From an uncultured Alphaproteobacteria bacterium (GTDB lineage: Bacteria > Electryoneota > RPQS01): 64,000 nt of DNA. Where the stretch lies: positions 8,654 to 72,653 of the forward strand of contig CAZHAK010000012.1 in assembly GCA_964530625.1 (NCBI GenBank). The letters run 5' to 3'. A program made the translations under genes and the position numbers. Position 1 is the first letter of the stretch. The number at the start of each line of letters is the position of its first letter. The notes beneath the pieces were generated by a model. The model was not told where the DNA came from. It worked only from the letters and a program-made list of their open reading frames with translations, and did not search any database. Positions 3,950-59,073 of this stretch are shown in pieces.

Positions 3950-5608
3950 ATGATAATCATCGCATCAATCTTAATCGCCTTGGTTGTAACTCAATCAGCT
4001 CGCCCAACAATTATAGTTGTAGAAGCTGGAGAGAGCATCCAAATCGCATTAGCTTCATCAATCACTGGCGATACAGTCCTTGTTCAACCCGGCGATTATC
4101 ATGAGAGCCTTCGACTTCCAAACCACTCAGTTACACTTGCGGGGAGCTATCTATTTTCATCGGACACGATGGATATTCGCGAAACGACGCTCTTTCCTGA
4201 CAGCGTGTCACTGGACACGAATAGCTGCATAGTAGTTACTTCCGGCAATCAGATATGCCATCGCGTTGTTGGCCTAACCCTTAAAGGCGGAAAGGGTACT
4301 CAAACAAATATTTTTAATAATCAAAAGAGCGGCGGCGGGGTTTATGCCAGAAATTCTTGTGTTACAATCGAATTCTGTAGAATCCTGGATTGTAAGACAA
4401 CATTCGGCGGTGGAATTGCCGCGATTGGACCAAGCTTTGAGGTTCGCTCCGGATTTGTCGAAGTCAACAATTGTTTCATTCGAGGCTGTACAGCGCAGGA
4501 AAATGGGGGCGGTTTTTTTGCGCTGAGTTGTAGCCTCGCATTTGATCACTGTGAATTAGTTAAAGATTCCTGCTTAAATTTCTGCGGAGGAATAGAGGCA
4601 AGTCAAAGCTACATACATGGAACAAACACCACCGTTGATTCGGCCTACGGTTCTTCTAGCTCTTTGGATATTAGCACCAGTGAAGTTTACTTAAATCAAT
4701 GCAGTTTTTTACACGGCACATGTATTCCCCATCCCTTATCGAACAGCTTTTTTCACATAGGGAGTAGCTCAGGTAGAGTCGCAGCATGCACGTTCAGTGA
4801 GAATTTAACGGAGTACCCAGGAGGTTCTATCATAGGCGATCCCGCACCAGAAGTAGTTGGGTGCGTTTTTGAAAGAATCACGGCAACGATTTACACAGCG
4901 ACAGTCTTGATCGGGTACGACGATAACACTCAGTTCGCATACAACATTATTCGCGATAACGTAAACATTGCGGGAGGCGCGATCCAGCCGTTTCAGAGAA
5001 CGACCGCACGCATTCATCACAACCTTATCACGGGCAATCGGTCACTGCAAGAGAATCGTCCGTCCGCGATTTTGTGCGTCTCAAACTGCAACCCAACGAT
5101 TGACTCCAATCGAATTGAAGGCAATCATGGCAGTTCAGTCGGATTCATTATTGAGTTAGGTGAACATCACTGGGACTTATCGCGGAACTGGTGGGGGCAC
5201 GAGAGCGGCCCTTACGACGCGGTACGCAATGCGGGCGGACAGGGCGACACCATTCAAACAGATTCCGTTGTCTTTGAACCTTGGCTTCTGACTCCGCCTG
5301 AAACGTCAGTTGGCATAGGGCCCATACATCCGAAACAGCCGTTAGCGAGTACTTGGGAGATTCTGGCAGTCTATCCGAATCCGTTCAACAATTCTTTCAC
5401 AGTTTCCATTGCAGGTTTTGCACGCAGCGATTTTGAGGTGAAACTCGTAGACCTACTTGGCCGCCAGGTCGCTTCCATCCATAGCGGCTCACTAACCGGG
5501 ACATCTCTTCGTTACGATGCCGCCACGCAGCTTGCAACTGGACTATACTTTCTCGTCGCACAGGACAGCCGATCCGTTAGCGTTAAGAAAGTAGTCTTTC
5601 TAAAGTAA
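3950..5608 (+). CDS. Right-handed parallel beta-helix repeat protein (NosD/pectate-lyase-like) with a C-terminal T9SS (Por) sorting domain.
   Basis: N-terminal signal-like MIIIASILIALVVTQSA. Many G/N/C-rich beta-helix repeats. C-terminal AVYPNPFNNSFTVSI...KKVVFLK matches the Por_Secre_tail pattern. Confidence 0.65.
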   Translation: MIIIASILIALVVTQSARPTIIVVEAGESIQIALASSITGDTVLVQPGDYHESLRLPNHSVTLAGSYLFSSDTMDIRETTLFPDSVSLDTNSCIVVTSGNQICHRVVGLTLKGGKGTQTNIFNNQKSGGGVYARNSCVTIEFCRILDCKTTFGGGIAAIGPSFEVRSGFVEVNNCFIRGCTAQENGGGFFALSCSLAFDHCELVKDSCLNFCGGIEASQSYIHGTNTTVDSAYGSSSSLDISTSEVYLNQCSFLHGTCIPHPLSNSFFHIGSSSGRVAACTFSENLTEYPGGSIIGDPAPEVVGCVFERITATIYTATVLIGYDDNTQFAYNIIRDNVNIAGGAIQPFQRTTARIHHNLITGNRSLQENRPSAILCVSNCNPTIDSNRIEGNHGSSVGFIIELGEHHWDLSRNWWGHESGPYDAVRNAGGQGDTIQTDSVVFEPWLLTPPETSVGIGPIHPKQPLASTWEILAVYPNPFNNSFTVSIAGFARSDFEVKLVDLLGRQVASIHSGSLTGTSLRYDAATQLATGLYFLVAQDSRSVSVKKVVFLK

Positions 5609-33333: not shown

Positions 33334-33879
33334 TCAGTCTTGCTTCTTGGTCGCGATTTGGTCCACAACGGACACAAAATCACGCAAAACAGCATTGACC
33401 ACATTGTAGAAGCCCTGCACGGGGCTGAAGACGGCTGCAACCAAGCCAGAGAGCGCTTCTTCGCGTGTCGGGAGGTCTTTGATTGCGGTAAGTTCGGAAG
33501 CGGGCAGGACTTTCCCGTCAAAGATAACACTTTTGACAACGAGCCTGTCGCTCGTTTTCATAAACTTATCTAAGATACGCGCGGGCATGGCGGCATCTTC
33601 ATAGCCAATGGCGATGGCAGTAGGGCCTTCAAGGTACTTCACCGCGTCATCAAATCCCTTGTCCTTCAGCACCATACGTGAGAAGGTGTTTTTGACGATA
33701 ATGAAGTCCACTTGGTTCTTAAAACACTCGCGGCGCAACTCAGTCATTTTCTCGACCGAGAGTCCGAGGTTATCCGCCAGATACACTCCTGAAGCGCGAT
33801 CCATTTTCTCACGGAAGTCCGCGACGATGGCTGCCTTTTCGGGGCGTATGGTACGGTTTTGAAGTTCAGCTAAAGACAT
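33334..33879 (-). CDS. rplJ: 50S ribosomal protein L10.
   Basis: 181 aa, typical of L10. Confidence 0.85.
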   Translation of the reverse strand: MSLAELQNRTIRPEKAAIVADFREKMDRASGVYLADNLGLSVEKMTELRRECFKNQVDFIIVKNTFSRMVLKDKGFDDAVKYLEGPTAIAIGYEDAAMPARILDKFMKTSDRLVVKSVIFDGKVLPASELTAIKDLPTREEALSGLVAAVFSPVQGFYNVVNAVLRDFVSVVDQIATKKQD

Positions 33880-35145: not shown

Positions 35146-35721
35146 TTAGCTTGTGCCTAACTCGGTCGAAATTTGCAGGAAATCCAACTCAATCGGAGTG
35201 GAACGGCCAAAAATTGAGACCATGACCTTGGCTTTGCGCTTCGGCATATTGATCTCTCTTACCAATCCTGTGAAATCCTTAAACGGTCCGTCTATTACCT
35301 TGATCGTGTCGTTGACGCCAAACGGCAACTCGATCAACTCCATGTTATCGGCTTTGTCCTGCTGGCCTAAAATGCGGTCAACTTCGTGACGGCGCAGGGG
35401 AACCGGACGGTTCTTCGGGCCGACGAAATTAATCACTTGCGGCGTATTCAAAATCAAATGCTCAGTGTTCTTGTTCAAGATCATTTCCACAAGCATATAG
35501 CCGGGGAAGAACGTGCGCGTCTTGGCTTTCTTCTTGCCGTCGCGCATTTCAATCACGTCTTCCTTGGGAATCAGGACTTGCGTGATCTGATCGGCAACAC
35601 CCAGCCGTTTGGATTCTTCTTCCAAGAATCCTTTGATTTTCTCTTCCTGTCCGGTGAACACGTGAAGGACATACCAGCCCAGTTCACCATCACGGATCGG
35701 TGCGTCAGTTGGATGAAGCAT
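35146..35721 (-). CDS. nusG: Transcription termination/antitermination factor NusG.
   Basis: NGN domain (WYVLHVFTGQEEK) plus KOW (KDFTGLVREIN). Confidence 0.9.
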   Translation of the reverse strand: MLHPTDAPIRDGELGWYVLHVFTGQEEKIKGFLEEESKRLGVADQITQVLIPKEDVIEMRDGKKKAKTRTFFPGYMLVEMILNKNTEHLILNTPQVINFVGPKNRPVPLRRHEVDRILGQQDKADNMELIELPFGVNDTIKVIDGPFKDFTGLVREINMPKRKAKVMVSIFGRSTPIELDFLQISTELGTS

Positions 35722-35735
35722 TTAGCTTGAACTAC

Positions 35736-36641
35736 TCACAATGAACGTTTAACTCCAATATATAGCTCAGAAGAACCCGGTCCTCCAAGCAGACCGCTGG
35801 TGTAACTGAGCGTCCCCCGGGTGGCTCCGCGCAAAAGTCCGAACGCCGTGCGCGAATCCGATAGGATACAATGATAGAAGGCATCAAATGCCACGGCGCC
35901 GAGGCTCCTTGGATCGAAACCTGCTCGAATCAAGAGATCAAGCATCACCGGCGGCTCAAAATGATAAAGATGTCTGGGTGAATCCCAGGCGACCCATTGG
36001 TCTCCGTACGCCTTCGCATCAATGGAGAGCGGATTGGGCACCGCGATAGCAATTTTCCCGCGCGGAGACAGCAGCTTTCTGGCAATCTCCAATGTCTCGC
36101 GCAACTTATGGACATGTTCCAATACATGCCACATCGTAATCAATTTATACGGTCCGGCATGAGCCGGGACAGCATCAATTCCGCCTGTCCAAACTCTCAA
36201 GCCAAGTTTGTCGCGCGCATGCTGCGCCGCTCTTTCACTTGGCTCGCAGCCGTCTGCTTCAAATCCTCTTCGCTTCAATTCCACTACAAACTCACCGGTC
36301 GCACAACCGACGTCAAGACATCGGTCAGCAGGCTTTAATCCAACCACAACTCTGGCGGCCTTGCGCCGGATAGACAGCGGACGAAATTTGCGATAGAGCT
36401 TTGCCGATACCGTCTGCGGTCCGTCACCTGCCGAAGCAAAAGGATCGTATCCCGGAGTGTCATAGAACGCGCCGATGGATGCTTCATCGGGCCGCGGATT
36501 CAGATAAATCAGTTTACACATCTGACACCGCACAAGAGCGTACGTGCGATTGTCGAGCACTCGAAACCTGTCTTCTACGGTACGCTCTGGTTTATGTTCC
36601 GGGCAGGAGCAAACCGGGCAGACAATCGTCTCAAAATTCAC
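35736..36641 (-). CDS. Class I SAM-dependent methyltransferase with an N-terminal C4 zinc ribbon, inserted between secE and nusG.
   Basis: CPVC...CQMC zinc ribbon. LDVGCATGEF SAM-binding motif I. Gaps to secE and nusG are 12 and 14 nt. Confidence 0.7.
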   Translation of the reverse strand: MNFETIVCPVCSCPEHKPERTVEDRFRVLDNRTYALVRCQMCKLIYLNPRPDEASIGAFYDTPGYDPFASAGDGPQTVSAKLYRKFRPLSIRRKAARVVVGLKPADRCLDVGCATGEFVVELKRRGFEADGCEPSERAAQHARDKLGLRVWTGGIDAVPAHAGPYKLITMWHVLEHVHKLRETLEIARKLLSPRGKIAIAVPNPLSIDAKAYGDQWVAWDSPRHLYHFEPPVMLDLLIRAGFDPRSLGAVAFDAFYHCILSDSRTAFGLLRGATRGTLSYTSGLLGGPGSSELYIGVKRSL

Positions 36642-36653
36642 GCCGAATGAAAA

Positions 36654-36836
36654 CTACAGCAGTTGCTGAAGTCCCAGACTAAGGATGCGATCTACCACGA
36701 AGACGGCAAGTCCCAGTATGAGAGTGAGTCCGAGCACGATCCACGTGCTTTCCGCGACTTCCGGTCGGGTCGGCCATGTGACTTTCGTCATTTCCGACTT
36801 GACATCGGTGACGTAGTTGATAGTTTTCTTAATCAT
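36654..36836 (-). CDS. secE: Preprotein translocase subunit SecE (60 aa, single TM).
   Basis: MIKKTINYVTDVKSEMTKVTWPTRPE... Confidence 0.85.
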   Translation of the reverse strand: MIKKTINYVTDVKSEMTKVTWPTRPEVAESTWIVLGLTLILGLAVFVVDRILSLGLQQLL

Positions 36837-36942: not shown

Positions 36943-36983
36943 GTACCGCTGCCGCGACGAGGCTTCGGCACGGCGGCTTAAAT

Positions 36984-37022
36984 GGGAACAGAAGGCCGGA
37001 GCCATAAAAGGTGGCTCCGGCC
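36984..37022 (-). terminator. Hairpin (ggccggagcca...tggctccggcc) plus a weak T-run downstream of tuf.
   Basis: Inverted repeat seen directly. Confidence 0.4.
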
Positions 37023-37040
37023 TATCCGGAAAGAGTGTAC

Positions 37041-38231
37041 TTACTCGATGATCTTAGTTACACGTCCCGCGCCGACGGTCTTGCCGCCTTCACGAATAGC
37101 GAAACGCAAACCTTCGTCCATCGCGATGTCGGTAATCAAGTCAACGGTGATTGCCGTGTTGTCGCCGGGCATAATCATCTCGGTGCCTTCACTCAACGTA
37201 ACCGAACCGGTAACGTCGGTCGTGCGGAAGAAGAACTGCGGGCGGTAATTATTGAAGAACGGCGTGTGTCGGCCACCTTCGTCTTTGGACAGGACGTAAA
37301 CCTGCGCTTCGAACTTCTTGTGCGGCTTGATCGAACCGGGCTTACAGAGCACCATTCCACGCTCGAGATCGTCTTTTTCCACACCGCGCAAAAGCAATCC
37401 TGCGTTGTCGCCAGCGAAGCCTTCATCGAGGAGCTTACGGAACATTTCTACACCCGTTACAACCGTCTTCTTGTGCTGTCCCAACCCGACGATTTCAACT
37501 TCCTCACCAACCTTAACCTTGCCGCGCTCAATACGGCCCGTACCGACGGTACCGCGACCGGTAATCGAGAACACGTCTTCGATCGGCATCAGGAAAGGCT
37601 TATCGAGCGCACGTACCGGTTCCGGAATGAACTCATCCACGGCGTCCATCAATTCCATGATGCACTTGGTCTTTTCGGGATCCTGCAAGTTTGACAGCGC
37701 TTCCAACGCGCTGCCGCGGATCACCGGAAGCGTGTCGCCGGGATATTCGTACGAGGACAGCAATTCACGAACTTCAAGCTCAACCAAGTCGAGCAATTCA
37801 GGATCGTCAACTTGGTCGCACTTGTTCAGGAACACGACCAGCGCGGGCACGTTCACCTGACGAGCGAGCAGAACGTGCTCACGCGTCTGGGGCATGGGGC
37901 CGTCCGCGGCGGACACGACGAGAATCGCGCCGTCCATTTGGGCAGCACCGGTGACCATGTTCTTAATATAGTCGGCGTGGCCCGGGCAGTCCACGTGCGC
38001 GTAGTGGCGCTTTTCAGTTTCGTACTCAGCGTGGTGGACGTTAATCGTGACGCCGCGCTCTTTTTCTTCGGGCGCGTTGTCGATATCGTCATAGTTACGG
38101 GCTTGTGCCAATCCCTTAGCGGCGAGCACTTGCGTGATAGCGGCGGTGAGAGTGGTTTTGCCATGGTCGACGTGACCAATAGTGCCGATGTTAACATGCG
38201 GCTTGTTGCGTTCAAATTTGGCTTTTGCCAT
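37041..38231 (-). CDS. tuf: Elongation factor Tu, the single copy in this window.
   Basis: [15 protein letters not shown]. 396 aa. Confidence 0.95.
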
Positions 38232-38821: not shown

Positions 38822-38851
38822 AGTTAGGTACCGCCGAAAACCGCAGACCCA

Positions 38852-38880
38852 AAGTTAAGAACTTGTGAAATTGCAGTCAA
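38852..38880 (-). promoter_or_regulatory. Sigma70-like promoter (TTGACT, 17-nt spacer, TAACTT) about 30 nt upstream of the tRNA-tuf operon.
   Basis: Read on the minus strand directly upstream of tRNA-Thr(TGT). Confidence 0.4.
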
Positions 38881-38957
38881 GCGGCGAGCGAGTGGATTTG
38901 GGGCGAAATGGCGGTTTTTTCGGCGTTTTGACACACATAGTGCCAGATACGCCTCTC

Positions 38958-42681: not shown

Positions 42682-43725
42682 GTGAAGGTACTGATAACGG
42701 GCGGCGCGGGATTCCTCGGACTACACACCGCGCTGTGTTTTGCGGAGCATGGCTGGGACCTGATTTTAACGGACATAGCACCCTTTGAGACGTCGGAATA
42801 TCCGGCGGGAACGGTTTTTCTTGAGCACGATGTGCGGGACAAAGCCGGGCTGGACAAAATCTTGTCGGAATACAAAGTGGACGTGATTGTCCATGGCGCG
42901 GCAGCTCTGCCTCTCTGGAAGCCGAAGGACATTTTTGAGATAAACGTGGAAGGCACGCGCCGCGTACTGGAATCGGCCAAACAAGCAGGGATAGACCGCG
43001 TCGTGTTTGTCTCGTCAACGGCGGTCTACGGCATTCCCGATCATCACCCCTTGTACGAAACGGACAGAGTGCATGGCGTAGGTCCGTATGGCGAGAGCAA
43101 GATTCAAGCGGAAGACGTTTGTTTCAAGTTTCGCTCAGCCGACTTCTGTGTGCCGGTGATTCGTCCCAAGACGTTTATCGGCACCCATCGTCTGGGAGTC
43201 TTTCAGATTCTTTATGATTGGGTCGAAAGCGGCAAGCGCATTCCGATGATCGGCAAGGGCAACAACCGCTATCAGCTTTTGGAAGTAGACGATCTTGCTG
43301 AGGCGATTTATTTAGGCGCAACGGTTGAGGCGGCTCGCGCGAATGATACATTCAACATCGGCGCGGAAGAATTCAAGACCGTCAGAGAAGACATGGGCGC
43401 AATGTGCCACTATGCGGGTAACGGTGCGCGTCCGTGGGGCACTCCCGCAGGGCCGGTCAAGCTCGCGCTGATGATTTTTGAAGTGATGGGACTTTCGCCT
43501 CTTTATAAATGGGTCTATGGCACGGCGGACCAGGACAGCTTCGTCTCAATTGACAAAGCCAAGCGCGAGCTGGGCTGGAGGCCGAAATACTCGAACGCGC
43601 AGGCCTTGATTCGCAGCTATCAATGGTATTTGGATAACAAGCACACGATTCCCGAAGGCAGCGGCATCACGCACCGCATCGCCTGGAATCAAGGCATCCT
43701 GAAATTCTTCAAACGGTTTATGTGA
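42682..43725 (+). CDS. NAD-dependent epimerase/dehydratase (extended SDR family).
   Basis: VLITGGAGFLG Rossmann motif. YGESK catalytic pair. GTG start with GGAG 9 nt upstream. Confidence 0.8.
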   Translation: MKVLITGGAGFLGLHTALCFAEHGWDLILTDIAPFETSEYPAGTVFLEHDVRDKAGLDKILSEYKVDVIVHGAAALPLWKPKDIFEINVEGTRRVLESAKQAGIDRVVFVSSTAVYGIPDHHPLYETDRVHGVGPYGESKIQAEDVCFKFRSADFCVPVIRPKTFIGTHRLGVFQILYDWVESGKRIPMIGKGNNRYQLLEVDDLAEAIYLGATVEAARANDTFNIGAEEFKTVREDMGAMCHYAGNGARPWGTPAGPVKLALMIFEVMGLSPLYKWVYGTADQDSFVSIDKAKRELGWRPKYSNAQALIRSYQWYLDNKHTIPEGSGITHRIAWNQGILKFFKRFM

Positions 43726-43746
43726 TCTGCTGACGGGAGGTTGGGA

Positions 43747-46404
43747 ATGAAACTGTCCGCCACAATTGCACTTTCGATAGTTTGCCTGTTCTGTTTACAG
43801 TCAACGATGCTCGCCACTCCCTATTGGACGGAGGCCCAGCTTGACTCAGCGCAAGCCGCGTCCGGTACTGCGTCATTGATTCGCCACGGTGAGACCGGCA
43901 ACCGCTCGCACAGCAGATCGCTTGACGATATTGCTTACTTCGTGAAGTATCGGCAGCTTTGTGATTTTCTGGCTTCGATGCAGGTCACGACACCCGGCGC
44001 GAACTTAGGCGGGATGCGCGAGGGCGAGGTCGGCAGCGACTTCAATATCATTCAGACCGACAACACACAAGAAGCCATTCGCGTTTGGTCGCAATATTCT
44101 ATATGGACGGGCGACACCGCTCGCTATGCGCAGAACATTCGCAACGCCTGGACATATTGCACGGTCTGGCCCGCGTGGCGCGAAGAAGGCGGCGGCTACT
44201 ACGCGATGCACAACTGCGGCTGGGGATTTGAAGCGGCCTACAAATACCGCGAAGCCTACGGCGACACGAGCAAAAACTGGTACGCCGACAGTTGCGCGTG
44301 GTGGGTGAACGGTAATCCGCTAAGTCTGACTTCGATTCTGAATATCGCCGCGCAAGGCTTGGGCATCGGCGGTATGTATCCTCACGCGGTCTATCGTGGC
44401 CGCACGGATTGGCAGGACTTCACATTGGGCCGCGCGCGCATTATTCGCAATTGGTTTCAAGCAAATCCGTCGCGCTTAAATACCGAAACAAGTTGGGCAC
44501 TCTGCGCAGGCACTGCGATTTGGGGAGTCTGCAATTCACTGTGGATAGCCTATCCCGACAGCGGCGCGACGTGGATAAACCAATACGGCACGAATCTCGA
44601 AACATGGGAGTCGCCCTCATCATGGTACAACGCATTTAATACGTGGTACTCGAACGCGACGTTCAGGTTCTGGGAAATCAGTGGCGACTCACTCTATTGG
44701 CATCGCGGGGTTTTCTACGCCGACTCGCTGGTGGGTTTTGACGTGGACAACGACGGCGGCATTCCGCCGGGCACCTGCTGTATCAGCAACGGCAACGACC
44801 ATACTTGGGTCAGTGCCTACATGGGTTGGATGGGACTCGAACGGATAATTTCGTCTGCGCCGATTTCGTTTGTGGATGCGGTCGGATTTTCCAGTCCCTC
44901 AGAGGACGCTGCGTATCTTGCGGGCGATCCGCTTCCGGTTACTGCGCTGGTCGCGAATCAGGGTACGGAAGCATTGCAGGGCCGTGTCTGGGTGTGGGGA
45001 TTGAATTACTCGGACAGCGCAGATTTCACTGCTGGAGCGGGTGACGTCGTGGAGGTACCGATGAGCAATCTTTGGACGCTTGCAGACAACTCCACACTTC
45101 CTGAATCGCCTATGCTATTTTCAAGGGTGCGGGTTATCTTAGAAGGCGACACTTTGCAGGCATTAGATTCTGCGGGCTTTGATATTCGGCGCGGTGGCAT
45201 CGTGCAGGGAACTATCTCGGGCGAGTTTGACATCGCAACGTCCCCCGCCTGCTTGATTGAGTTCTATTCGGATTCCTACCCGGACTCGCTCTGGCACTCG
45301 GTAAATGTCGGCGCGGGCGAGATGTACTCCAATGGCGCTCGTCGCCTGTTGTCGGGCGGCAATCGAATGGTCGTCTACGGGCCAGCTCGCTACTTGATTG
45401 AAGAGATCGCGTTTTACCCATTAACTCCGGAAGAGAATCCGGATGATCTCGATGTGTACCTGACATCATCGGACGTTCTTCTGGTGGATGACGATCTTGG
45501 ACAAAGCTACGAGAATTATATTCTGTCAGCGCTTGATGCCAATGACAGAAATGTGCGCGTCTGGGATCGCCAGTCAACGGTGCTCGGCGATCTGTCTAAT
45601 GTGCCGTGGTTGATTTGGATGACGGGCAACGACGCGGTGACGACTCTTGATGCGCAAGACCATAATACGTTAACGGGCTTTATGCTGGCAGGCGGCGGAG
45701 TGTTATTGACGGGGCAGAACATCACGGATGATCCTCAGAACGAAGACTTCTTACGCGACATAATGCGATGCGAGGAAGATCGCTCGGATACGGACGTGCT
45801 GCGCGCCTATGGCTTAGGCGACGACCCTGACGTGGATGGACAATTCTTGTTGCTGTTAGGCTCACAAGGGGCGCAGAATCAAACAAGCCCCTCCTCTATC
45901 ACTTTGTTAAATGGAGCCACAGCGATCTTTGTCAATGATACGATCACGGAGGAAGTGTGCGGAGTATCAGGACTGCATGGATCTGGCAAGTTTATTTTCC
46001 TGAGCTTCGGACTTGAAGGAGCGTCAGGACAAGCTGGCAGTACGTCGCGCTCCGTGTTTTTATCTGCTGCAGAAGACTGGTTGACAGCACCGCTGCAAGC
46101 AACCATTGATCCACCCGTCGTGTGGAACTTCGAGTTGCTGCCGAGTTTTCCCAATCCTTTCAACGGCCAAGTGCAGATTCGCTGGCTCGCTCCAGATAAT
46201 TCTTCCCGAACTACTCTCCAAGTTTACAATCTTTTGGGCAGGCATGTGACAACCTTGTTTGACGGGTTCGGGAAAATTGGACAAAACTTGGTCACATGGA
46301 ACGGCGCAACATCAAGTGGTGTTCCGGTATCCAGCGGAACGTACTTGGTTCGCTTGACGACGCCGGACGCGACGCTGTCACACTCCATCCGCTTCATCCG
46401 CTGA
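43747..46404 (+). CDS. Large secreted hypothetical protein (about 886 aa) with a signal peptide and a C-terminal T9SS sorting domain.
   Basis: MKLSATIALSIVCLFCLQSTMLA signal. GGGAGG 6 nt upstream of the ATG. C-terminal LLPSFPNPFNGQVQIRW...IRFIR. Confidence 0.7.
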   Translation: MKLSATIALSIVCLFCLQSTMLATPYWTEAQLDSAQAASGTASLIRHGETGNRSHSRSLDDIAYFVKYRQLCDFLASMQVTTPGANLGGMREGEVGSDFNIIQTDNTQEAIRVWSQYSIWTGDTARYAQNIRNAWTYCTVWPAWREEGGGYYAMHNCGWGFEAAYKYREAYGDTSKNWYADSCAWWVNGNPLSLTSILNIAAQGLGIGGMYPHAVYRGRTDWQDFTLGRARIIRNWFQANPSRLNTETSWALCAGTAIWGVCNSLWIAYPDSGATWINQYGTNLETWESPSSWYNAFNTWYSNATFRFWEISGDSLYWHRGVFYADSLVGFDVDNDGGIPPGTCCISNGNDHTWVSAYMGWMGLERIISSAPISFVDAVGFSSPSEDAAYLAGDPLPVTALVANQGTEALQGRVWVWGLNYSDSADFTAGAGDVVEVPMSNLWTLADNSTLPESPMLFSRVRVILEGDTLQALDSAGFDIRRGGIVQGTISGEFDIATSPACLIEFYSDSYPDSLWHSVNVGAGEMYSNGARRLLSGGNRMVVYGPARYLIEEIAFYPLTPEENPDDLDVYLTSSDVLLVDDDLGQSYENYILSALDANDRNVRVWDRQSTVLGDLSNVPWLIWMTGNDAVTTLDAQDHNTLTGFMLAGGGVLLTGQNITDDPQNEDFLRDIMRCEEDRSDTDVLRAYGLGDDPDVDGQFLLLLGSQGAQNQTSPSSITLLNGATAIFVNDTITEEVCGVSGLHGSGKFIFLSFGLEGASGQAGSTSRSVFLSAAEDWLTAPLQATIDPPVVWNFELLPSFPNPFNGQVQIRWLAPDNSSRTTLQVYNLLGRHVTTLFDGFGKIGQNLVTWNGATSSGVPVSSGTYLVRLTTPDATLSHSIRFIR

Positions 46405-55345: not shown

Positions 55346-56140
55346 TTGACCCATATGCGACTGGCACTGACTCTGATTCTTGGTATTTTCACATTGGGGG
55401 AGGCCGCAATCGCCGCAGACTTCGTGCGGCTGAAAAGCGGCCGCCTGATAGAGGGCGCGGTCATCCGACAAGATACAATCGCCGTCTATCTCGCCCCGTG
55501 GGATCAGCGCGCCCTCAGGCAGCCAGAGCTTCAAGTTTTCGCCCGCGACGAAGTGGAATCAATCTGGCTCGGCGGCAAACCCGCCAAAGGTGTTAGACGC
55601 AAATACACTCCGCGGCCTGGACTTGTTGAATTAGGCGGCGGATTGGGACTGCAAACATGGGCCTCCACCTTGCATCAGCGCCGACATCTTATCCAGTTTT
55701 CGACGCTGGTAGGAACTTCTATCAGTGACTATCTCGGCATGGAGTTAGTCGGTGAGATGACGGCGCCATTTGGTAAATCCGCCGATCCCGGTTTTGATTC
55801 GCTGCAATTCTCATATCAGCTTGCGCTTCACCTTGTAGGCACGCTGAAAACCAAAAGCCCGTTCACTCCGTTCGCGTATGTAGGCGCAGGAATCGGCCGC
55901 GACGTCTCGACCGCTGGCGTAACCTTGACCAAACACGCGGATGACAGGAATCTGGTGGAAGTCGGCATCGGGGCCAAACTCGGTTTCGGCGGTGTCGGGC
56001 TCCGCACAGAGATTCGCCATGCATACTATGAATGGAACAAGACTATTTACATCGGCTCGTCCAACGGGCGCGACTACTACACGACACGGCAATCCGCGGA
56101 CGCGACCAGCATGCGTGTCTCGCTGTTCACATACTTTTGA
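55346..56140 (+). CDS. Outer-membrane beta-barrel protein (signal peptide, alternating amphipathic strands, C-terminal Phe).
   Basis: LALTLILGIFTLGEAAIA signal. Ends ...LFTYF. Confidence 0.5.
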   Translation: MTHMRLALTLILGIFTLGEAAIAADFVRLKSGRLIEGAVIRQDTIAVYLAPWDQRALRQPELQVFARDEVESIWLGGKPAKGVRRKYTPRPGLVELGGGLGLQTWASTLHQRRHLIQFSTLVGTSISDYLGMELVGEMTAPFGKSADPGFDSLQFSYQLALHLVGTLKTKSPFTPFAYVGAGIGRDVSTAGVTLTKHADDRNLVEVGIGAKLGFGGVGLRTEIRHAYYEWNKTIYIGSSNGRDYYTTRQSADATSMRVSLFTYF

Positions 56141-56154
56141 TCTTGGAGATCACC

Positions 56155-59073
56155 ATGCGCCCGCAAAAGATTCTTAGCATCATATACATCGCGCTGATTT
56201 CAACGACCGCGTTCGCCGCTCAGGATTACTCCGTGGAGTTGCTGACGAAGGCTCTCGTAAAGAGCGAACAGCTTGAGTCGGGCACACTTGCCGACTGGAA
56301 GCGCGTGCGTTCAGAAGGCTTTGACGGATACGGAGTATACTGGGGAATTCCCGTCACTCTCGATGCGAAATCTTCCGGACAATCACTTGCAGAGTCCATC
56401 GCCTCAGAGCTTGACCTTGCCGATGAGTATACACTGCTTGCCTCACACGTATCTCCCACTCGCGAGTACGAGATATTCAGAGAACTCCGTAACGGACTAC
56501 CTGTGATTGGCGGCAGACTTGATATTGCCCTGAACAAAGCAGGACAGCTTACACGAGTCACTCACACGAGCTTCTCGAAGTGGAACACAAGCGGCATGCA
56601 TGCTCTGAGTCCGTTTGTCGCGGCAACGTATCTAACAGCGAACCTCGAACCAGCGAATTGGCAAGTGGTCAATGAAGAATCCTTCGCCTGCTGGTACCCG
56701 GATGCCGACGCGAGAAATTTGCGCGCAGCCTACTGGCTGAAAGTTGCAGGATCCCAGCCGCACCAAAGGTATTTTGGAATTGTAGACGCCCAGTCCGGCA
56801 AAATTTTGCTGGAATGGCCGGGCATCGCACACGAGGTGCTTACGTTGAATGTAGACCAGCCCTATTGGCAGCCCTACGATCATAGTCAGGTCTTGGAAGC
56901 GCCTTGCCAGCATCAATCAGTCAGAATAAACGGCTCAACCTTTACGACCAACGCATCCGGCGCTGTATCCGCTGAAGCCGGGTCTCAAGCGAACGTGGAC
57001 GCCTACCTGCAAGGATCATTTGTGGAAGTCGGAGAGCACGAAGAATCAAACGTCCCGTGGCAGAGCGCAACTTACTCCGCGCCCTTCGTCAACAATGAAT
57101 TTTTTTGGGATCAAGATCACACCAGCCGCCCGGCCCTTAATCTCTACTACCACACGATGTTTATTCACGACTGGTACAAGATTCTTGATCCTCCCTATGA
57201 CGCATTGGACTATCCGGTGCCCGCTGTTGCAAACTATGGCAACAGTTACGACAACGCGTTTTGGAACGGCTACGGAACTTACTACGGTTCAGGTATGACC
57301 TACGGGAATTTTGCGATGTACTCCGATGTGATCTACCACGAATACACACACGGAGTGACCGATGGAATCTATCCCGACGGTACGTTGCCCTACACGGGGC
57401 AGTCGGGCGCCATGAATGAAGCGTGGTCGGATTACTTTGCCTGCACGATCAATGGGGATCATTTAATGGGTGAGTGGCTGACGGGAAATGCCACCAGTTA
57501 TTTTCGCAATCTTCTCAGCACGACCATTTATCCACAAAATTGGGTCGGACAAGTGCATGGCGACAGCCCGTTTATCTCCGCGCCGCTGTGGACTATCCGC
57601 AATGAATTAGGCGTCGGCTACGGTGATTCCCTCGCTCACTTCGCTCGCTATGCGCTGGCGGAAACTTTCTTCGACTACTTCTTGGCTGTGCTGGAAACCG
57701 ATGACACGGACGGGAATCTCGCCAATGGCACACCGAATGACTACGTGATTTACGACGCCTTCGGCAGACACGGCATCGGACCGGGCGTAAAGCCCAATTT
57801 GGTCATTCGTAACTTTGTTATTGACGATTCGGACGGCAACGGCAACGGTTTTGCGGAAGCGGGTGAAAATGTGACCATGACGTTTTCCATTGTCAATGAC
57901 GTGACGCTCTTCCCGCCATTTGTCACGAACGCGGTGCTTCATACTGTTACGGACGACAACACAATCTCTCTCGGAGACACGGAGTTTTCGTTAGGCACGA
58001 TTGGCCCGCGCGACTCGATTCAAATCGGGCCGAACGCTGTGACCGTTTCATCAGGCGCTACGGAACATTGGGCGGTAGTTCGTCTTGACGTGACCTCAGA
58101 TCAATTTTCAGAAGAGTTCGAAACCCCGTTGGAATTCGTGATCGGTGTTCCAAAAGTGCACGTCGTCACGCGCGCGCTTGCAACGGATGTTGACCAATAT
58201 GTCACAGGCTCACTGCGTACCATGGACAAGATATTTGTGCACAAGCGTTTAAACTCATCGCAAGGCCTGGATCTGTCCGCACTGCCTGATACAGGCATGG
58301 TTGTTTGGTTGTCCGGCGACGCAACGAACTCCGGTTTGTCTGAGCAAGACATCACCACACTGACCGCTCATGTCGGCGGCGGTGGTCGCCTGGTGCTGTC
58401 CGGGAAAAATATTCTGGGTGGAATCACGGGCAGCGATTTTGCTCGCAATACTCTGGGCGTGGACGCTGTGGGCCGTTCCCGCTTGAGGATGACAACAAGA
58501 ATGAATATGCCCTTTGCCGAAGGCGACGTGTATCTATTGACAGGATCAGGCGGTGCGGCTAATCAAGATAGCATGACGATGCTGGACGTTATGACCAACT
58601 CAACTCCCGTGCTCAGGTTTGGTCCATCAGGTAATGACATTTCCGCTGTCGCCGGACCGATTGGCGGACGAACTCTCGTCTTCGGTTTTGGCATAGAAGG
58701 GATTGTCGACAATTCCCCGATCGGAAATCAATCGCGTGCTGTCTTCCTCTCGCGGCTGCTCGACTGGGCGGGCCACCCGACACCAGCCGATGATCACATA
58801 GCCCCCGTTTGGCGACCCAATGATTTCGCGCTGCAAGCAGCTTATCCGAATCCATTCAACAGCACAGTGCGACTGGATTACAACATCGGCAACGCAAAAA
58901 ACGCGCGTCTAGTCTTTTTCGATGTCTTAGGCAGAGAAGTTCATCGAGACAATTTGCCCGCTCAGTCAAACGTTTATTCGTGGCAGCCGAGCCTTGCCTC
59001 AGGCGTGTACTTCGCCATTCTGCAATCGGATTTTCAAACATCCGCGCCGCAGAAGTTAATGCTGCTTCGTTAA
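56155..59073 (+). CDS. Secreted M4 (thermolysin-like) zinc metalloprotease with a T9SS C-terminal sorting domain.
   Basis: HEYTH (HEXXH) and downstream GAMNEAWSD (Glu ligand). Signal peptide MRPQKILSIIYIALISTTAFA. C-terminal AAYPNPFNSTVRLDY...LMLLR. Confidence 0.7.
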   Translation: MRPQKILSIIYIALISTTAFAAQDYSVELLTKALVKSEQLESGTLADWKRVRSEGFDGYGVYWGIPVTLDAKSSGQSLAESIASELDLADEYTLLASHVSPTREYEIFRELRNGLPVIGGRLDIALNKAGQLTRVTHTSFSKWNTSGMHALSPFVAATYLTANLEPANWQVVNEESFACWYPDADARNLRAAYWLKVAGSQPHQRYFGIVDAQSGKILLEWPGIAHEVLTLNVDQPYWQPYDHSQVLEAPCQHQSVRINGSTFTTNASGAVSAEAGSQANVDAYLQGSFVEVGEHEESNVPWQSATYSAPFVNNEFFWDQDHTSRPALNLYYHTMFIHDWYKILDPPYDALDYPVPAVANYGNSYDNAFWNGYGTYYGSGMTYGNFAMYSDVIYHEYTHGVTDGIYPDGTLPYTGQSGAMNEAWSDYFACTINGDHLMGEWLTGNATSYFRNLLSTTIYPQNWVGQVHGDSPFISAPLWTIRNELGVGYGDSLAHFARYALAETFFDYFLAVLETDDTDGNLANGTPNDYVIYDAFGRHGIGPGVKPNLVIRNFVIDDSDGNGNGFAEAGENVTMTFSIVNDVTLFPPFVTNAVLHTVTDDNTISLGDTEFSLGTIGPRDSIQIGPNAVTVSSGATEHWAVVRLDVTSDQFSEEFETPLEFVIGVPKVHVVTRALATDVDQYVTGSLRTMDKIFVHKRLNSSQGLDLSALPDTGMVVWLSGDATNSGLSEQDITTLTAHVGGGGRLVLSGKNILGGITGSDFARNTLGVDAVGRSRLRMTTRMNMPFAEGDVYLLTGSGGAANQDSMTMLDVMTNSTPVLRFGPSGNDISAVAGPIGGRTLVFGFGIEGIVDNSPIGNQSRAVFLSRLLDWAGHPTPADDHIAPVWRPNDFALQAAYPNPFNSTVRLDYNIGNAKNARLVFFDVLGREVHRDNLPAQSNVYSWQPSLASGVYFAILQSDFQTSAPQKLMLLR

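Follow-up and report, generated by a model that had tools for sequence, protein, structure and literature searches.

A methyltransferase gene (MT) inserted between secE and nusG is a clade-wide and unusual gene-order variant, neither a singleton nor a matter of chance. The gene was found in a stretch of 64,000 nucleotides, here called the window, in an operon region that otherwise follows the bacterial standard. The canonical bacterial order is tRNA-Trp-secE-nusG-rplKAJL-rpoBC, as in the E. coli secE-nusG operon (PMC6735719). Genes, order and strand in the window are identical to this arrangement, except that secE and nusG are separated by an enzyme gene of 906 nt, and that rpmG is missing between tuf and secE.

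Structure of the secE-nusG region

The region comprises the following features, listed in the direction of transcription:

38821-38321, minus strand: tRNA-Thr, tRNA-Tyr, tRNA-Gly and tRNA-Thr, 5' of tuf (tRNA search)
37041..38231, minus strand: tuf (EF-Tu), the opening protein gene of the run (ORF and translation)
36994..37022, minus strand: hairpin in the tuf/tRNA-Trp spacer, with a stem of 11-12 bp and a 7-nt loop
36869..36942, minus strand: tRNA-Trp (CCA) (ARAGORN; Rfam tRNA 66.2 bits)
36654..36836, minus strand: secE, 60 aa, single-helix type (Pfam SecE 9.1e-17; TIGR00964 55.6 bits, cut-off 27.55)
36642..36653, minus strand: secE-MT spacer, 12 nt, with no evident Shine-Dalgarno sequence
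35736..36641, minus strand: MT coding sequence, 301 aa, GTG start (ORF, Pfam, alignment, selection)
35722..35735, minus strand: MT-nusG spacer, 14 nt (sequence)
35146..35721, minus strand: nusG, 191 aa (Pfam NusG 9e-26; TIGR00922 187.9 bits, cut-off 135.7)
35086-34661, minus strand: rplK (ORF; Pfam of syntenic loci agrees)
34599-33898, minus strand: rplA (ORF; Pfam of syntenic loci agrees)
33879-33334, minus strand: rplJ (ORF; Pfam of syntenic loci agrees)
33283-32915, minus strand: rplL (ORF; Pfam of syntenic loci agrees)

These coordinates bear out exactly what the preliminary description had reported, a 301-aa reading frame between secE and nusG with gaps of 12 and 14 nt. Downstream of rplL follow rpoB and rpoC, and then the str, S10, spc and alpha genes. 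The tuf gene shares 82-96% identity with its counterparts at syntenic loci, and the four tRNAs in front of it stand in the order of the E. coli tufB operon (thrU-tyrU-glyT-thrT-tufB). The Rfam scan returned five tRNAs only, with neither a leader nor a riboswitch among its results. The spacer between tuf and tRNA-Trp (36943-37040) folds with -46.2 kcal/mol (z = -5.6 against shuffles), and the strong hairpin that it contains, ahead of the secE-MT-nusG unit, is possibly an attenuator, a terminator or a processing site. A gene for a CDP-alcohol phosphatidyltransferase is located 4 kb upstream in the window.

Distribution of the insertion and secE-nusG spacing

The clade was surveyed in three ways: three orthologs were looked up, species-representative genomes were scanned, and the flanking genes were mapped with tblastn. 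All complete loci with an MT at least 50% identical (L001-L020, L037, L087 and L088) possess the order tuf-secE-MT-nusG-rplKAJL, with cysS upstream wherever the clade locus extends far enough. Partial contigs agree: three of them (L028, L089 and L090) start inside MT and continue into nusG, and a further one (L013) carries secE and then MT at the contig end. Labels of the clade's MAGs include 'Calditrichaeota bacterium HK-STAS-AABM5-4', 'candidate division KSB1 bacterium' and simply 'bacterium', and several of the MAGs derive from activated sludge; GCA_016712825.1, GCA_963853605.1, GCA_016702305.1 and GCA_964406405.1 belong to the clade. The isolate name AABM5 suggests the FCB candidate phylum AABM5-125-24, and Type IX secretion sorting domains detected with Pfam on two window proteins are consistent with the FCB superphylum.

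The scan of species-representative genomes found one family match per clade genome. Across the loci the identity of MT declines in parallel with the identities of CysS, NusG and RplJ, which indicates vertical inheritance. A recent horizontal acquisition of MT was rejected, as its identity follows that of these three proteins and its GC content equals the window mean (0.53).

The spacing of secE and nusG was surveyed by a metagenome scan with NusG, scored by script for the loci in which tRNA-Trp could be located. Loci with a NusG at least 75% identical have MT upstream, and the distance from tRNA-Trp to nusG in the insertion clade is 1144 nt. In about 60 loci with a NusG of at most 68% identity the same distance is 168-460 nt, i.e. 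room for secE only, and secE immediately precedes nusG; this canonical spacing in the more distant loci supports the preliminary view of secE-nusG as an otherwise very stable adjacency. The exception is L091 (NusG 72%), in which a different, unidentifiable ORF ends 172 nt before nusG. Homologs of MT with 30-40% identity were inspected at 65 loci (Bacteroidales, Lentimicrobium, Chlorobium/Prosthecochloris, Calditrichaceae, Neomarinimicrobiota, LCP-89, Zixibacteria and Cytophagia), and none of the 65 possesses secE or nusG within 5 kb. Literature searches did not yield any description of an MT insertion between secE and nusG.

Junctions and expression signals

Junctions were scored at 17 loci, the window included. 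The secE-MT gap measures 11-21 nt in 16 of them and 45 nt in L019, and the MT-nusG gap 10-17 nt in 15 of them and 44-46 nt in L017 and L019, the two most divergent members of the clade. MT starts with GTG at 15 of the 17 loci and with TTG at the other two, at none with ATG. No Shine-Dalgarno sequence is visible before MT, and its GC3 is 0.52 as against 0.60-0.675 in the highly expressed neighbours. A scan for sigma-70 promoters and intrinsic terminators from 32.5 to 41.5 kb resulted in site counts equal to those of shuffles, and terminator-like sites were seen in neither of the gaps flanking MT. The search for a Bacteroidetes-type -7 motif returned a single intergenic candidate, located 5' of the first tRNA-Thr. 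Co-transcription of MT with secE and nusG is plausible, on the indirect basis of junctions that mostly measure 10-21 nt and of gaps devoid of terminator-like sites. Taken together, all these features, and the strong hairpin between tuf and tRNA-Trp, would fit a read-through from tRNA-Trp/secE to nusG with a deliberately weak translation of MT.

Start codon, domains and conservation of MT

The GTG at 36641 is the earliest possible start of the MT frame, and translation must start there, because residues 2-7 are already conserved among orthologs. The conservation of the four cysteines likewise identifies the 301-aa GTG start as the correct one; public gene calls for the same sequence comprise 274 and 261 aa, miss the first CxxC pair and are consequently too short. 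The protein can be divided into the following parts:

36516..36620, minus strand: predicted N-terminal zinc ribbon, residues 8-42 (C8-x2-C11...C39-x2-C42), with invariant cysteines and a predicted sheet
35904..36395, minus strand: class I SAM-binding core, residues 83-246, with LDVGCATGE (109-117), E133, WHVLEH (171-176), PNP (202-204) and WVAWDxPRH (216-224)
35739..35903, minus strand: family-specific C-terminal extension, residues 247-301, of two helices and a final strand, with AFDAFYH and GSSELY

Pfam Methyltransf_23 (PF13489) matches with 85.9 bits (cut-off 27, E 3.2e-24) over positions 1-163 of the 164 in the profile. The AF2 model, built on 78 sequences, has a pLDDT of 94.7 and a pTM of 0.93 and consists of the zinc ribbon, a linker helix with a Rossmann-like alpha/beta class I core, and two C-terminal helices with the last strand; the ribbon is modelled as a three-stranded sheet (residues about 8-47) with a pLDDT >93. 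Sequence and model thus support a class I SAM methyltransferase with a four-cysteine N-terminal zinc domain, and the preliminary assignment to this architecture holds in view of the Methyltransf_23 match and the four invariant cysteines.

An alignment of 29 orthologs of 50-83% identity contains 83 invariant positions, among them C8, C11, C39, C42, LDVGCATGE, E133, WHVLEH, PNP, WVAWDxPRHLYHF, AFDAFYH and GSSELY. The four cysteines are at least 90% conserved among 78 family members, as are the two features required for SAM binding, the glycine-rich motif I (L109-D-V-G-C-A-T-G-E117) and the acidic residue that closes strand 2 (E133). Against three relatives, pN is 0.10-0.13 and pS 0.74-0.79 (saturated), values that indicate strong purifying selection. 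MT is intact in all complete clade loci but L020, where it is apparently frameshifted. The alternative of a frame without function, open by chance or left over from a decaying gene, has next to no probability and is effectively refuted: an unusual GTG start, the absent Shine-Dalgarno sequence, a GC3 below that of the neighbours and start positions that differ among public gene callers would agree with it, but not the low pN beside a saturated pS, the invariant positions down to 50% identity with zinc ligands and SAM motifs included, the confidently predicted fold, or the intact frame in every complete clade locus other than L020.

Comparison with solved structures and curated families

In a Foldseek search with the AF2 model the top 18 matches are all KijD1, MtmC or TcaB9 (targets of 403-419 residues, TMt 0.46-0.49). 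The remaining top matches are mostly small-molecule methyltransferases, and the tRNA methyltransferases Trm9, CmoA and CmoM occur among the generic matches only. TcaB9, KijD1 and MtmC (PDB 3ndi, 5t64 and 4rv9) are NDP-hexose C3-methyltransferases with about 19% identity to MT, and constitute the sole solved structures in which a zinc domain and a Rossmann core are combined as in MT. In the structural alignment of the model, the N-terminal region of MT aligns with the Zn domain of the TcaB9-type enzymes. MT ends at 301 aa, without the C-terminal NDP-sugar-binding domain (Methyltransf_14) of about 150 aa possessed by these enzymes; its own C-terminal extension stands in place of that domain in TcaB9. 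Neither PF08484 nor PF08421 (Methyltransf_14 / Methyltransf_13) matched MT at E<=0.01. Lacking the NDP-sugar-binding domain, MT is therefore not a member of the TcaB9/KijD1/MtmC family, and its gene, unlike theirs, is located outside any antibiotic deoxysugar cluster. The catalytic residues of TcaB9 are Tyr76, His181, Tyr222, Glu224 and His225. Searches of the PDB with two fragments of MT (residues 1-107 and 165-301), intended for an alignment with TcaB9 at residue level, gave no significant match.

Nearest by sequence profile are two uncharacterised Methyltransf_23 proteins, BCE_1332 (PDB 3cc8, E 2e-24) and TM1293 (1vlm, E 2e-16). Both share the core of MT, and with it the PN and H-x-x-F region that follows strand 5; both differ from MT in having neither zinc ribbon nor C-terminal extension, and they provide no functional information for MT.

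PrmA (L11), RlmA (23S rRNA) and RsmG have the class I fold in common with MT, and RlmA combines an N-terminal zinc domain with a class I core. Identity with any of the three was rejected, PrmA not being among the Pfam and NCBIfam matches at E<=0.01, and RlmA and RsmG being without a qualifying profile match. UbiG/UbiE was rejected as well (TIGR01983 28.8 bits against a cut-off of 102.95, TIGR01934 16.4 against 158.35). All 10 NCBIfam matches are far under their cut-offs, the best with 39 bits against 155, and none is an RNA methyltransferase; the curated NCBIfam rRNA and tRNA methyltransferases (RsmG, RlmA, MnmC, CmoM and others) did not reach their cut-offs. The pI of MT, calculated at about 9, would be compatible with nucleic-acid binding.

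Family size and gene neighbourhoods

At E<=1e-30 the FCB-wide family comprises 16,747 cluster representatives, the best 150 of which are nearly all full-length (290-330 aa), and within the Bacteroidia branch E<=1e-20 is passed by every one of the 8,000 candidate clusters scored. Carriers of the family gene include Prosthecochloris vibrioformis DSM 260 (L045) and Dyadobacter sp. CY261 (P0082). The full-length pattern (about 300 aa) consists of the four cysteines, NPRP, motif I, WxVLEH, PN and WxAWDxPRH, every one of which occurs in the window MT; in the alignment of 78 sequences MT retains, in addition, E133, W216, D220 and P222-R223-H224. Labels in the family are generic only ('class I SAM-dependent methyltransferase', 'SAM-dependent methyltransferase', and benzoquinol methylase / UbiE in JGI). 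A characterised member was not found in literature searches, and the family is without a specifically named member among the records examined. MT itself is a member of this generic class I methyltransferase family and already carries a generic annotation in public MAGs. The preliminary description had considered that the insertion might prove to be a common, already annotated feature such as a known rRNA methyltransferase: it is common in the lineage and annotated, but only as a 'class I SAM-dependent methyltransferase'.

Neighbourhoods of the homologs were compared by clustering the neighbouring genes, by annotating them with Pfam and by another four look-ups; the homologs of 30-40% identity are assumed to be orthologous to the clade MT. 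The following arrangements were found (lineages by record label):

LCP-89, a 'Deferribacteres' MAG and unclassified MAGs: TMEM260-like GT-C, GT2, (OMP), MT, DUF4837, PurE, (PfkB), RmlD-like, GT2, GT2
Marinisomatota: RNase R, then the MT-to-GT2 block as in LCP-89
Zixibacteria and one Calditrichaeota MAG: MT, RmlD-like, (GT2)
Calditrichaceae: MT, YfhO-like
Chloroflexota (L168): GT2-MT within a GT1/GT2/GT4 cluster
Bacteroidia, at least 28 loci: ybeY, mnmG, MT, sensor kinase
Chlorobia: HIT, MT

MT is flanked by a TMEM260-like GT-C, GT2, DUF4837, RmlD-like or Dpm1-like GT2 gene in L022, L027, L029-L032, L034, L043, L044, L046, L048, L049, L167, L169 and L170. In L169 a GT2 gene is separated from MT by 7 nt, and MT overlaps with DUF4837 by 4 nt. 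DUF4837 is a lipoprotein in the glycosylation block, and the terminal GT2 is Dpm1-like. The Bacteroidia order mnmG-MT resembles the gidA-gidB (mnmG-rsmG) adjacency of E. coli. Envelope glycosylation loci are most often the setting of the family among the lineages inspected, and this most widespread setting is probably also the ancestral one.

Lipid-linked periplasmic glycosylation is usually recognised by a GT-C enzyme together with a Dpm1-like GT2, and such modules are matched by the TMEM260-like GT-C, GT2 and RmlD-like reductase genes flanking MT homologs in several phyla. A methyltransferase role within a lipid-linked glycosylation module may be supposed. Human TMEM260 is a Dol-P-Man-dependent protein O-mannosyltransferase (PMC10214176). 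No bacterial glycosylation system of such composition was found described in the literature searched. Unlike these homologs, the window MT has no glycosylation-module genes adjacent to it: Pfam did not identify a glycosyltransferase cluster among its flanking genes, and a search of the window for TMEM260-like, GT2, DUF4837, PurE, RmlD, YfhO, MnmG, YbeY, HIT and RNase R resulted in a weak epimerase match only (42682-43587).

Origin and possible substrate of MT

We infer that MT acts on a sugar or glycoconjugate, being a housekeeping methyltransferase that was relocated into a constitutive operon and is weakly translated from GTG or TTG, and regard the chances of this explanation as about even. 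In the ancestor of the AABM5/KSB1/Calditrichaeota-labelled clade (FCB superphylum) a gene of the family probably moved into the secE-nusG spacer and has been inherited vertically in this slot since. A transcript from tRNA-Trp/secE would read through MT, which would consequently be expressed constitutively, and its translation would be weak because of the GTG or TTG start, the missing Shine-Dalgarno sequence and the GC3 below that of its neighbours. The enzyme would methylate a sugar or glycoconjugate intermediate with SAM and not a component of the translation apparatus, and its position in the operon would amount to genomic hitch-hiking without a functional link. A relocation of the clade's single detected family copy from a glycosylation-type locus is supported by the different positions of the gene inside and outside the clade, the conservation of the slot, purifying selection, the retention of the invariant residues, the junctions of 10-21 nt in most of the clade and the non-ATG start throughout. 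As the family-wide invariant residues are unchanged in the clade, nothing indicates that MT took on another function once relocated, and as the family occurs among envelope sugar genes elsewhere, the position between secE and nusG says little about the substrate of MT. Against this explanation stand the lack of the Methyltransf_14 domain, which binds the NDP-sugar in TcaB9, and the RNA- or translation-related neighbours in three lineages (secE/nusG, ybeY-mnmG in the Bacteroidia loci, RNase R in Marinisomatota). Furthermore, the glycosylation block contains the unrelated genes PurE and PfkB and may therefore represent genes conserved as a string rather than the operon of a pathway, and the pI of about 9 also counts against the explanation.

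The preliminary description took the position in the operon to imply a substrate in the translation machinery. MT would then methylate a component of translation or transcription (rRNA, tRNA, L11, L7/L12, EF-Tu or NusG), and its place would reflect co-regulation with that substrate. We consider this unlikely. The short gaps at secE-nusG, the slot conserved through the clade, the homologs directly after ybeY-mnmG and after RNase R, and the pI of about 9 all agree with such a role, but the claim is not supported by the large family as a whole, which elsewhere sits mostly in glycosylation loci, with the gene among glycosyltransferases in most lineages. Its closest solved folds belong to NDP-sugar and other small-molecule methyltransferases, neither PrmA nor any curated RNA or ribosomal-protein methyltransferase matched, the best NCBIfam scores being far under their cut-offs, and the residues invariant in the family are unaltered in the clade, so that a new function is not indicated.

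Nor is it likely that MT is a housekeeping methyltransferase for another small molecule (quinone, lipid, cofactor or metabolite), with both neighbourhoods incidental. The JGI label of the relatives as benzoquinol methylases points to a quinone, but the UbiG/UbiE scores are far below their cut-offs (for TIGR01983 by the values given above); the variation of gene contexts among phyla would suit incidental neighbours, but GT-C, GT2 and RmlD-like genes recur beside MT in several phylum-level lineages, down to the 7-nt gap and 4-nt overlap in L169. The CDP-alcohol phosphatidyltransferase gene 4 kb upstream counts in favour of this alternative, and against it the zinc-domain architecture, which among solved structures is common only to sugar methyltransferases.

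Lastly, the zinc-ribbon family as a whole may be an unrecognised modifier of the gene-expression machinery, and the operon of its substrate would then have attracted the clade gene. Its three independent linkages (secE/nusG, ybeY-mnmG and RNase R) could point that way, and conceivable targets are an rRNA base, a derivative of the tRNA wobble uridine or a protein of the same operon (NusG, L11 or L7/L12); all in all, this is quite unlikely.

Significance of the insertion

The adjacency of secE and nusG is among the most stable in bacteria, and here a foreign enzyme gene has become fixed within it and has persisted throughout a deep clade, its junctions mostly tight and its start codon weak in every case. 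The insertion cleanly illustrates, in nature, that a core operon with high expression can tolerate a low-abundance passenger. It also calls for caution against function calls made by guilt by association, given that in most other phyla the family is found beside glycosyltransferases. Since the family is large (the 16,747 cluster representatives mentioned above) and without a specific name, any experimental assignment would annotate many genomes, be it to a methylated envelope glycan or, less likely, to a modification of RNA or the ribosome.

Gene order and gene calls in the window

The methyltransferase (MT) gene lies within a run of same-strand genes that extends without interruption over about 37 kb. 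Its genes were assigned mostly by eye from translations, and on these assignments MT is the sole non-standard operon member of the core run from tuf to rplQ.

about 5600-42500, minus strand: purF-like, CDP-alcohol phosphatidyltransferase, cysS, tRNAs, tuf, secE, nusG, rplKAJL, rpoBC, rpsLG, fusA, S10/spc/alpha operons, rplQ

Public records (P0001 and P0389) call the identical MT gene (35736-36641, minus strand) as 274 aa (24 contigs in NCBI, ENA and Logan) and as 261 aa. Both calls begin at internal codons, and the zinc ribbon thereby loses its first CxxC. Conservation of the N-terminus shows the GTG codon, which gives 301 aa, to be the correct start.

Lineage of the window and its relatives

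Two large secreted proteins, among them an M4/M36-like metallopeptidase, bear C-terminal sorting domains of the type IX secretion system (Por_Secre_tail), which supports an origin of the window in the FCB superphylum.

43741-46404, plus strand: Por_Secre_tail protein
56032-59073, plus strand: Por_Secre_tail protein

Several of the MAGs with the clade-specific order secE-MT-nusG (loci L010, L016, L017, L019 and L037) bear the record title 'uncultured Alphaproteobacteria bacterium'. In tuf, nusG and rplK they share 70-96% identity with MAGs labelled AABM5 or KSB1, which makes the alphaproteobacterial labels look wrong.

Signals around tuf and the tRNA genes

Two potential signals were found near tuf.

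36994-37022, minus strand: GC-rich hairpin (perfect 11-12 bp stem, 7-nt loop) ahead of UUCUGUUCCCAUUU in the tuf/tRNA-Trp spacer
38850-38885, minus strand: TTGACT-N19-TAACTTTG motif directly upstream of the first tRNA-Thr

The tuf/tRNA-Trp spacer has a folding energy of -46.2 kcal/mol (z = -5.6), and its hairpin may be an attenuator, a terminator or a processing site that divides tuf from the secE unit. The Bacteroidetes-type -7 motif has only two matches between 32.5 and 41.5 kb, one upstream of the first tRNA-Thr and the other (33519-33526) within rplJ. The TTGACT-N19-TAACTTTG motif is a candidate promoter of the tRNA-tuf unit.

Other insertions around secE and nusG

The metagenome contig L091, with NusG at 72% identity, carries neither secE nor MT upstream of nusG (490-1068), and an unrelated ORF ends 172 nt before that gene.

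L091, 3-317: C-terminus of the unrelated ORF

This ORF yields no Pfam match, and BLASTP against MT gives an E-value of 0.31; L091 looks like a second, different break of the secE-nusG adjacency in a near relative. In another lineage (L145 and L147) the order is gyrB-secE-nusG, followed by two inserted ORFs (4585-5431) ahead of rplK, one of 128 aa and one of 150 aa with a motif that resembles a Nudix box by eye. The secE-nusG-rplK string does have insertions elsewhere as well, but those of L145 and L147 come after nusG, whereas MT precedes it in the window. The GyrB encoded upstream of secE in locus L165 (307-3543) comprises 1078 aa, with an insertion of ~420 aa flanked by Cys and His-Asn-Ser residues that, judged by eye, looks like an intein.

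Neighbourhoods of MT homologs in other phyla

In at least 28 genomes of Bacteroidia (L026, L035, L041, L051-L086) the MT homolog directly follows ybeY-mnmG in the same orientation and precedes the gene for a ~1230-aa sensor histidine kinase. The order mnmG-MT echoes the mnmG-rsmG (gidA-gidB) order of E. coli, although RsmG is unrelated to the MT homolog. A different gene string with an MT homolog recurs in multiple phyla (L167, L169, L170, L029, L030, L043 and others).

Recurrent order: TMEM260-like GT-C, GT2, MT, DUF4837 lipoprotein, PurE, (PfkB), RmlD-like reductase, Dpm1-like GT2, GT2/Bac_transf

Its TMEM260-like GT-C is about 910-995 aa long, in some cases with a TPR tail, and the string looks like an undescribed bacterial locus for lipid-linked glycosylation.
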